Both the position numbers and the translations under genes were made by a program. The notes under the pieces are model-generated. The model had not been told where the DNA came from. It made no database searches and saw nothing but the letters and a program-made list of their open reading frames with translations. A stretch of 64,000 nucleotides of DNA, taken from sequence record ON645936.1. The stretch is one strand, 5' to 3'. The stretch's first letter is position 1. Each line of letters starts with the position of its first letter. Below are positions 1 to 1,233 of this stretch, piece after piece. The DNA is from Escherichia phage N2.

Positions 1-253
1 CATCCATAGACATACCGAATTTAGAAGCAAAGTTATCAATTTTCTTTTCGACAGCATTCAAAGGCTTGGCCTGTTTACCTTCATTAGCACCAGGAAGAGC
101 GAGAATACGCTCTTTGTCAATATAAAGGCTTACAAGTTTCTTACGGTCTTTATCGGACAAATCGTGAAATGAATGGGCCTTTTTATTTATAGCGGCTTCT
201 AATTTACCTGCACTCACTCGCGCTTCAGTAATAAATTCTTGATATGTTTTCAT
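1..253 (-). CDS. ipIII: Internal head protein III-like, N-terminal part (gene runs off window start)
   Basis: Reverse translation from ATG at 253..251 gives MKTYQEFITEARVSAGKLEAAINKKAHSFHDL..., matching the T4 IPIII capsid-targeting sequence as recalled; no stop before window edge. Confidence 0.75.
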   Translation of the reverse strand, partial: MKTYQEFITEARVSAGKLEAAINKKAHSFHDLSDKDRKKLVSLYIDKERILALPGANEGKQAKPLNAVEKKIDNFASKFGMSMD

Positions 254-262
254 ATGTTTCCT

Positions 263-679
263 TTAAATGTAAATATTTTTACCGTAGTATTTATACCAGT
301 ATGGTTTCATTAAAATTTTTTCGTTGAGTCGCTGTTGACTCAATTTAATAGCTGATTTGCATGGATTATAATCATTTTTCCATTCTGTTGGAATATCGCT
401 TATGTCAGGAACTTCAGTGTCTTTTATACTGAACCCGCGTTTTAAGCATTCCATTATAATGTCTGATTGACGCTTTCGCAAAAATTCTAACTTGTCGTAA
501 AAGAACGTAACATGACCAGAACCTAAAATAAACTCGGAAGATATTTTAAAATCTTTAACCCGCTTGCCATTTGCCACGTGTTTACGAACTATACCAAAAA
601 CACGTGGCAATTCACGGTATTCTGCAATTAAATGTTGATCAGCAAGTTCAGATACTAAAGTCAAATTAATACGAGTCAT
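263..679 (-). CDS. denV: Endonuclease V, pyrimidine-dimer DNA glycosylase/AP lyase
   Basis: 138 aa; [17 protein letters not shown]...YWYKYYGK matches T4 EndoV N-terminus and length but is clearly diverged. Confidence 0.9.
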
Positions 680-738
680 TTTATCCCTCCAAGTAACTGT
701 GAATATACTATCACAGTTCTAGGAGAAAGTAAACAACT

Positions 739-1233
739 TTATAGATTTTTATACGCGTCCCACGTACCAGTTCTAAACGTGGCAATGACTCGTTTTGCGC
801 GATTAGGTGTTTGATTATACCATCGACTTTTAGCTAAGTTAACTGCTGCTTCATCCCAGCGTTTTTGTTGGAGCATACGTAAAGAATTAGTAAATCCTGC
901 TACGCCGGTTTCTCCCATTTGGAAAACCATGTTAATCAATGCACAGCGCCGAACAGCATCAAGAGAATCATAAACTGGTTTTAATTTAGCATTTCTCAGA
1001 ATTCCGCGAACAGCAGCATCAACATCCTGATTAAAGAGTTTTTCAGCCTCATCTTTTGTAATTACGCCATTGCAATTACGTCCAATAGCTTTATCTAATT
1101 CAGATTTGGCAACACTAAGTGATGGACTTTTAGTAAGCAAATGACCAATACCAATAGTGTAATAGCCTTCTGTGTCTTTATAGATTTTAAGTCTAAGACC
1201 TTCATCTATACGTAACATTTCAAATATATTCAT
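739..1233 (-). CDS. e: Lysozyme (endolysin)
   Basis: 164 aa; [33 protein letters not shown]... is essentially the T4 lysozyme sequence. Confidence 0.97.

Follow-up and report, generated by a model that had tools for sequence, protein, structure and literature searches.

Genes and spacers at the left end of the window

The window is the whole 64,000-nucleotide stretch of Escherichia phage N2 DNA analyzed here (record ON645936.1), and its positions 1–1725 are the left part of the second internal-protein (IP) locus of a Tequatrovirus, i.e., a T4-like phage. All genes at this end lie on the minus strand, and in the direction of transcription their order is nudE-e-denV-ipII. The features, listed in that direction, are:

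1270–1725, minus strand: nudE (Nudix hydrolase); Pfam PF00293 (NUDIX); 97.4% amino acid and 96.9% nucleotide identity to T4 nudE; conserved left flank of the locus
1260–1267 and 1247–1254, minus strand: two T4 late-promoter consensus motifs, TATAAATA, found by pattern search upstream of e
739–1233, minus strand: e (T4 lysozyme/endolysin), 164 amino acids; Pfam PF00959; 97.0% amino acid (159/164) and 95.4% nucleotide identity to T4 e
680–738, minus strand: e-denV spacer, 59 nt, a PeSL-like composite block (see below)
263–679, minus strand: denV (endonuclease V, a pyrimidine-dimer DNA glycosylase), 138 amino acids; Pfam PF03013; a divergent allele, called window-type here, with 76.8% amino acid and ~70% nucleotide identity to T4 denV
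222–281, minus strand: putative leader/CTS recombination block, made up of the denV stop codon with the 16 nt before it, the 9-nt spacer, and 32 nt from the start of ipII
254–262, minus strand: denV-ipII spacer, 9 nt, with a Shine-Dalgarno sequence
1–253, minus strand: ipII (internal protein II), ATG at 251–253; codons 1–84 of 100, the rest lying beyond the window start; 94.0% amino acid and 95.2% nucleotide identity to T4 ipII
224–253, minus strand: capsid-targeting leader (CTS) of ipII, codons 1–10, read from the sequence as MKTYQEFITE

The product of e lyses the cell and that of denV repairs UV dimers; the two motifs upstream of e are presumably late promoters, judging from what is generally known of late promoters in T4. 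The lysozyme matches PF00959 (Phage_lysozyme) at 51.7 bits, has Glu11, Asp20, and Thr26 in place, and is listed as the exact same protein in 1444 blocks of an assembly collection. The residues with catalytic and DNA-binding roles in T4 endonuclease V are the Thr2 amino terminus, Glu23, Arg3, Arg22, Arg26, Arg117, and Lys121. All seven (T2, R3, R22, E23, R26, R117, and K121) are unchanged in the alignment of the window denV product to the T4 endonuclease V structure 2END (E 9e-69), and the product matches PF03013 (Pyr_excise) at 49.7 bits (cut-off 23). The first-pass annotation, made from the sequence alone, had placed denV at 263–679 60 bp downstream of e, which is right, the spacer being 59 nt. 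It had also found no ipII between the two genes, and the window indeed has no internal-protein gene of any kind there.

The ORF whose ATG begins 9 nt beyond the denV stop codon (263–265) had been called IPIII-like. Its start and spacing were read correctly, but the gene is ipII: in BLASTP, the whole visible product aligns to T4 IPII without gaps, 79 of 84 residues being identical (E 1e-59), and the product belongs to phrog_7857, "internal virion protein" (E 1.7e-47, residues 1–84 of a 100-position profile). At the nucleotide level, window 1–281 is 95.7% identical to T4 ipII together with its leader. A local copy of Pfam gave zero matches for the IpII product; the full 100-amino-acid ipII of a Logan contig described below (L006) is flagged PF26874. 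An IPIII identity for the truncated ORF was rejected, as BLASTP aligned residues 1–30 only, with 15/30 identities that fall mostly in the leader, and a tblastn search of the whole 64-kb window with T4 IPIII found no ipIII, just the leader similarity of ipII. The resemblance to IPIII is confined to the first ~10–11 residues, i.e., the capsid-targeting leader, and the ORF was misnamed because this leader peptide is common to all T-even internal proteins. The correct description of the locus is e-denV-ipII, with the slot between e and denV empty.

The amino terminus of the ipII product, MKTYQEFITE/A (the slash marking the site), fits a CTS ending in the (L/I)-x-E prohead-protease site, and cleavage after Glu10 is predicted. 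The T4 record X04567.1 annotates a 10-amino-acid propeptide on both IpII and IpIII. The T4 IPII leader reads MKTYQEFIAE/A where the window has MKTYQEFITE/A, the common form being MKTYQEFI(A/T)E.

Gene order and denV alleles among relatives

The first-pass annotation had stated that T4 carries ipIII and ipII between e and denV. That is right: the NC_000866 annotation (64.9–67.0 kb) gives nudE-e-ipIII-ipII-denV-vs.8 and not e-denV-ipIII, the order that had been named as the possible alternative. The implication that adjacency of e and denV is an oddity did not survive comparison with other phages. A 301-nt probe over the e-denV junction was at least 80% covered in about 242 of the 441 matching phage records, a slight upper bound, as it would include a few Killian-type records in which two separate pieces make up the coverage. 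In the 30 records listed, all full-length matches were in a single piece. Adjacency is thus the majority state in sequenced relatives.

Outside the close relatives, the order is e-IP-denV-IP-IP-IP in Mosigvirus APCEc01, e-IP-denV-IP in Mosugukvirus PM2, e-orf-denV followed by an IPIII homologue in Winklervirus Kc304, and e-denV-vs.8 without IPs in Dhakavirus Bp7. The ORFs that flank denV in these outgroups begin with MKTY(Q/N/S/K)EF, except for the Kc304 ORF upstream of denV. These orders show a backbone common to Tevenvirinae, nudE-e-[slot A]-denV-[slot B]-vs.8, in which each of the two slots may be empty or filled by IP cassettes.

At least nine haplotypes were counted among close relatives whose lysozyme is identical or nearly identical to that of the window; ten encode the exact lysozyme. 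They are:

1: e-denV-vs.8, with both slots empty (LH2 type)
2: e-denV-IP157 (HY01 type)
3: e-denV-IP105-IP157
4: e-denV-IP105-ipII (SH-2 and BYEP01)
5: e-ipII-denV
6: e-ipIII-ipII-denV (T4)
7: e-ipIII-IP157, denV absent
8: e-ipII, denV absent
9: e-denV-ipII (the window)

JEP6 is one phage in which denV is absent and ipII present. None of the ten long contigs found with the exact window lysozyme has the window arrangement.

The T4 locus (NC_000866; X04567.1) and the window have e, denV, ipII, and nudE in common, as well as the 10-residue propeptide and a stem-loop/promoter block after each gene. They differ in order (e-denV-ipII in the window, e-ipIII-ipII-denV in T4), in the absence of ipIII from the window, and in denV, at only 77% amino acid identity. 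In terms of slots, T4 has both ipIII and ipII in slot A, whereas in the window slot A is empty and ipII is in slot B. The commonest arrangement in relatives, e-denV-IP157-vs.8 of the HY01 type, is collinear with window 222–4200 at 95.9% identity, taking in the e-denV spacer, the denV allele, the 9-nt spacer, and the CTS codons, but its post-denV cassette encodes a 157-amino-acid internal protein (phrog_3155/DUF7412) and not ipII. The best overall matches are Shigella phage SH-2 (97.1%) and Escherichia phage BYEP01 (96.5%), and these are the only phage records with ipII downstream of denV among those whose annotation or match layout was examined. Unlike the window, they carry a 105-amino-acid cassette (phrog_3966) between denV and ipII, i.e., a 336-bp insertion exactly at the junction, and SH-2 has a denV remnant 3' of ipII.

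The exact denV-ipII junction is rare. Megablast of window 1–480 against 50,697 phage records matched 563, and in none of them (0/563) was the denV-ipII junction contiguous, all matches over it being in two pieces; searches of IMG/VR and the JGI metagenomes with near-exact, partly degenerate patterns of the junction found none. A look-up of the exact denV protein recovered one 2.4-kb Logan contig, L006 (run SRR17598594), with the e-denV-ipII order. This contig is 99.06% identical to window 1–2338, contains the complete 100-amino-acid ipII followed by CAGTTTACTTTCTCCTA, and ends 17 nt past ipII. The junction lies in a repeat that several genes have in common, and large collections do not contain the arrangement, as might be expected of a chimeric join made during assembly at the repeated leader sequence. 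We regard such an artefact as extremely unlikely because L006 is an independent copy of the arrangement: it was assembled separately and differs from the window at ~1% of 2338 positions, so it is another sequence. In addition, the ORFs are intact and the 9-nt Shine-Dalgarno spacer is the standard one of HY01-type denV-IP157 junctions. In the collections searched, the e-denV-ipII haplotype is a new one, though all of its parts are known and have only been recombined.

Divergence of endonuclease V from T4 beside a nearly identical lysozyme had been noticed at the outset and put down to mosaic ancestry, and both observations were borne out. The denV product shows 76.8% amino acid identity to T4 against 97.0% for e, and a divergent denV allele lies inside near-identical flanks; with e, nudE, and ipII all at 94–97%, the mosaic reading holds. 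Across phage records, identity to the window denV product is bimodal (254 records at 95–99% amino acid identity, 22 at 90–95%, 5 at 80–90%, and 435 at 60–80%), which indicates two allele classes. The T4-type allele crosses genera, being 91–92% identical in amino acids in Mosigvirus APCEc01 and Dhakavirus Bp7, the lysozymes of which are just 83% and 74% identical to that of T4. T4 denV, taken together with its promoter block and downstream sequence, is >90% like that of Bp7, the promoter block and downstream sequence being nearly identical. At this locus T4 is no less of an exception than the window, with a Bp7-like denV region next to a lysozyme at 74% amino acid identity. The window-type allele is found in either position: HY01 has it after e, and Killian and VIPECOOM01 have it after ipII.

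Repeated blocks at the two junctions

The e-denV spacer has its T4 homologue in the block that lies 3' of e. In X04567.1, the T4 counterparts, which follow e, IpIII, and IpII, are annotated as stem-loop terminators with embedded -10 regions. Elements of this kind have been named PeSL (promoter-early stem-loop) or PeSL-like (Arbiol 2010, PMC2839356; Comeau 2014, PMC4122927), and the promoter consensus given for T4/PST is TTTACW-N17-TAYWAT (PMC4122927). In the window, the block at 680–738 contains a putative T4-early-type promoter, with GTTTAC at 734–729 and TAGTAT at 710–705; read against the consensus this is TTTACT, a 17-nt spacer, and TAGTAT, the -10 hexamer fitting TAYWAT at 5/6 positions. 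A stem-loop at 728–684 overlaps the promoter (RNA fold of -20.6 kcal/mol, z = -3.9), and the denV Shine-Dalgarno sequence GGAGG (690–686) sits in the 3' arm of the outer stem, with the ATG after it. A generic sigma-70 and terminator scan of 1–1800 made no call in the e-denV spacer, with counts overall at the level of shuffled sequence; the block was recognized only through its T4 homology and the published T4-type consensus, from which we infer its promoter activity.

Homologous blocks occur after e, ipIII, and ipII in T4, on both sides of ipII in Killian, and after ipII in SH-2 and L006. In Killian, it is the block homologous to window 692–734 that flanks ipII on both sides, and the BLAST breakpoints between relatives fall at the same window positions, 692–734. 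According to the later papers, Repoila 1994 was the first to see such elements at two variable IP loci, and described these loci as highly variable with PeSL-like elements at their flanks (PMC2839356; PMC4122927). The window resembles both PeSL shuffling and the IP-locus polymorphism attributed to Repoila 1994 in that boundaries of indels and rearrangements fall at repeated promoter/stem-loop/Shine-Dalgarno blocks, and also in that cassettes bring their own expression signals, the IP loci being the classic example. In the same literature, the IP-associated elements of T-even phages are described as analogues and not homologues of the RB49 PeSLs. Two traits set the window apart from PeSLs: the stem-loop overlaps the promoter, and a second repeat, the IP leader/CTS with its denV tail, marks the other junction.

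That second repeat is where the best relative changes. T4-type ipII cassettes are collinear with window 1–275/281, and the HY01-type backbone, which has a different IP gene after its denV, is collinear from 222 on. To the left of about position 275, the best matches are the ipII cassettes of JEP6- and SP1-type phages (99.3–99.6%), and to the right of 222 they are the HY01- and LH2-type backbones (97–98%). The two best-match zones overlap in the leader/CTS block, which is common to nine contexts in the alignment, and 222–281 is the putative crossover interval. The 9-nt Shine-Dalgarno spacer of the window is identical to that of the denV-IP157 junction in the HY01-type loci examined. A further candidate, a late promoter TATAAATA at 288–295 inside denV, was considered as an adaptation for ipII and rejected because it is present or absent regardless of a following IP gene; it is a synonymous polymorphism in the WYKYY codons.

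Origin of the denV-ipII arrangement

Very probably, the window holds the known hyperplastic IP locus, here with ipII after denV, and owes its arrangement to shuffling at repeated blocks. The window arrangement is an ordinary variant of this cassette locus, whose shuffling in T-even phages was described in Repoila 1994 and in the Arbiol and Comeau papers of 2010–14. Ordinary homologous recombination would move the cassettes, using short repeated blocks of two kinds: the composite early-promoter/stem-loop block after each gene (PeSL-like; here 680–738) and the conserved IP leader with its capsid-targeting codons (here 222–281). The simplest path for the window, and the likeliest of those considered, is a single crossover inside the ~54–60-nt leader/CTS block, between a common e-denV-IP genome (HY01-like) and a genome with an ipII cassette (T4-, Killian-, or JEP6-like). 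This specific path is plausible but falls a little short of probable: it has no parental or sister genome in its support, given the 0/563 records and the absence of the junction patterns from IMG/VR and the JGI metagenomes, and two of the pathways below would give the same product. It predicts that 3' of ipII there would be a promoter/stem-loop block from CAGTTTACTTTCTCCTA, maybe a denV remnant (ATGACTCG... ...TATTTACATT(T/C)AAATAACATGGGAA), and then vs.8.

SH-2 bears on several of these possibilities. After its ipII come a promoter block, ATGACTCG (the first 8 nt of denV), and the last ~70 nt of a second denV; the remnant carries a TAA-to-CAA change, as does the Killian denV. An unequal crossover and a subsequent internal deletion would leave just such a fossil. 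The window might also have come from an SH-2/BYEP01-like genome (e-denV-IP105-ipII) by loss of IP105 through recombination of two adjacent copies of the leader/CTS, in keeping with these two phages being the best overall matches and differing by an insertion exactly at the junction. The two SH-2 leaders have ATGAAAAC and downstream CTS codons in common, but perfect homology between them is short, about 8 nt, whereas the window leader is identical throughout to a T4-type ipII leader; in the ipII segment, Killian (99.6% identity) is closer to the window than SH-2 is (98.1%). We judge deletion of IP105 unlikely.

We are still more doubtful that a PeSL mini-circle carrying leader-ipII-PeSL was excised and then inserted into the denV tail of an LH2-like e-denV-vs.8 genome. 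PeSL mini-circles have been shown experimentally in RB49 and phi1 (PMC2839356), and LH2, with its slots empty, is the best match over the e-denV junction (98.3%). Neither demonstrated case is a T-even IP cassette, however, and the homology on which integration would rely, between the ipII leader and the denV tail, is real but short at 17–19 nt; the SH-2 fossil, in which ~70 nt from the 3' end of denV accompany the region of its start codon, fits an unequal crossover better.

The ipII leader itself carries a trace of denV. In T4, it contains TAAAAATATTTACATTTAA, which is identical to the last 16 nt plus the stop codon (19 nt in all) of window-type denV, and JEP6, which is without denV, keeps 17 of these 19 nt ahead of ipII. 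The tail belongs to denV because it is also present in genomes without an IP gene after denV (LH2 and VIPECOOM01) and is codon-for-codon homologous to the GKAIYA* of T4 denV. Its occurrence in the T4 and JEP6 leaders suggests that the ipII cassette formerly lay directly after a window-type denV allele. The position of ipII in the window might then be the ancestral one, with slot A of T4 derived by ipII moving upstream and taking a 3' piece of denV along; tight junctions between a denV stop and an IP start are also found in Mosigvirus and Mosugukvirus. We judge this reading rather unlikely. The ipII of the window is 99.3–99.6% identical to copies in slot A or in denV-less loci while the flanks are 95–98% identical to those of the best relatives, and an ipII closer to its relatives than the flanks are to theirs points to recent exchange rather than retained ancient linkage. 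The great rarity of the arrangement also argues against this reading. An ancestral position and a recent crossover are nonetheless compatible, as an old footprint would supply the homology for a recent re-creation.

Going a step further, and only tentatively, the ipII leader may be a fossil of the 3' end of window-type denV, the cassette having arisen just downstream of denV, and the denV-tail/leader block may be a second recombination hotspot in addition to the promoter/stem-loop blocks. Were this true, a block so far undescribed would let IP cassettes hop between the slots on either side of denV, and the window and one Logan contig would preserve, or have re-created, the source arrangement.

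Taken alone, the finding matters little, hyperplasticity of the T-even IP loci being textbook knowledge. The window adds one haplotype, with ipII only and after denV, and is a clean example of the places at which crossovers would fall. T4 is unreliable as a gene-order reference at this locus, and because the 10-residue leader common to internal proteins makes misnaming easy, annotation should proceed cassette by cassette. The T4 proteins Ip1, Ip2, and Ip3 differ in the GmrSD type IV restriction enzyme that each one inhibits, Ip2 acting on the fused GmrSD enzyme of ECOR21 (PMC12373910; further sources on IP function are bioRxiv 10.1101/2023.04.06.535777 and PMC9391042). Given its 94% identity to T4 Ip2, the IpII of the window would be packaged by means of its 10-residue leader, injected with the DNA, and would inhibit a fused GmrSD-type type IV restriction enzyme. 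As the three T4 proteins neutralize different GmrSD enzymes, the set of IP cassettes that a phage carries at this locus is a determinant of its host range.

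Signals around denV and the leftward internal-protein gene

In the hairpin occupying the e-denV spacer (684-728, minus strand), the outer stem pairs the Shine-Dalgarno sequence of denV, GGAGG (690-686), with UUUCUCC, and this sequence would therefore be masked in read-through transcripts from e. In transcripts initiating from the putative promoter embedded in the hairpin, it would stay unmasked. T4 is similar in this respect, as its "inverted repeat C" contains the denV ribosome-binding site in the 3' arm. Also inside denV, 34 nt ahead of the ipII start, is a perfect match to the late-promoter consensus:

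288-295, minus strand, TATAAATA, within the WYKYY codons of denV

The motif varies synonymously among the relatives, and across them its presence showed no link to whether an internal-protein (IP) gene follows denV.

The other internal-protein locus and a tRNA-Lys call

The other IP locus of the window is a tandem pair of genes that belong to families phrog_2667 and phrog_7673 ("internal head protein"), both encoding the capsid-targeting leader; the pair lies just downstream of a 151-aa gene whose product we take to be, probably, T4 57B-like:

8515-8823, minus strand, leader-bearing IP gene, start MKTFKEFINEA
8884-9156, minus strand, leader-bearing IP gene, start MKTFKEFINEA
9235-9690, 151-aa gene, phrog_755 ("RNA ligase")

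One ARAGORN call adjoins the T4-type tRNA cluster:

5331-5424, minus strand, tRNA-Lys(ttt), 94 nt

The other eight tRNAs were confirmed by the Rfam tRNA model at its gathering score; the tRNA-Lys call was not confirmed by that model at that score, and it may represent a T-even tRNA-like stable RNA or else a false call.

Altered and absent denV among relatives

Two relatives carry visibly altered copies of denV:

Shigella phage SH-2, about 2823-2948, second denV with an internal deletion, behind a promoter block and downstream of ipII
Escherichia phage Killian, 2867-3418, denV with an altered stop, TAA to CAA

The SH-2 remnant, which is not annotated in its record, consists of the start ATGACTCG joined to the last ~70 nt of denV. 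In Killian, the stop change makes the annotated ORF 552 bp long instead of 417 bp. An identical TAA to CAA substitution in the SH-2 remnant links the two lineages. In a further relative (L021), denV was called at only 102 amino acids and matched in two pieces, and for these reasons may be a pseudogene. Two members of Tequatrovirus lack denV altogether, with the orders e-ipIII-IP157-vs.8 (ON506924.1) and e-ipII-vs.8 (phage JEP6).

Movement of IP cassettes, and apparently of denV, between genera

The first-pass annotation placed an IPIII-like gene after denV in the window. That assignment did not hold, and the order is instead found in another genus, as Kosakonia phage Kc304 (Winklervirus, 2962-3531) has a 75%-identical IPIII homologue directly downstream of denV. 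When T4 (2870-3426) was compared with the Dhakavirus Bp7 (2431-3015), denV, its upstream promoter/stem-loop block, and the downstream sequence were nearly identical; the adjoining e and nudE products are only 74% and 60% identical, respectively. On this pattern, the denV module looks to have been exchanged across genera. Mosigvirus APCEc01, with a lysozyme sharing only 83% identity with that of T4, harbors a cassette (3246-3560) with 97% amino acid identity to IP105, the 105-amino acid cassette of the Tequatrovirus SH-2. This is direct evidence for intergeneric movement of individual IP cassettes.
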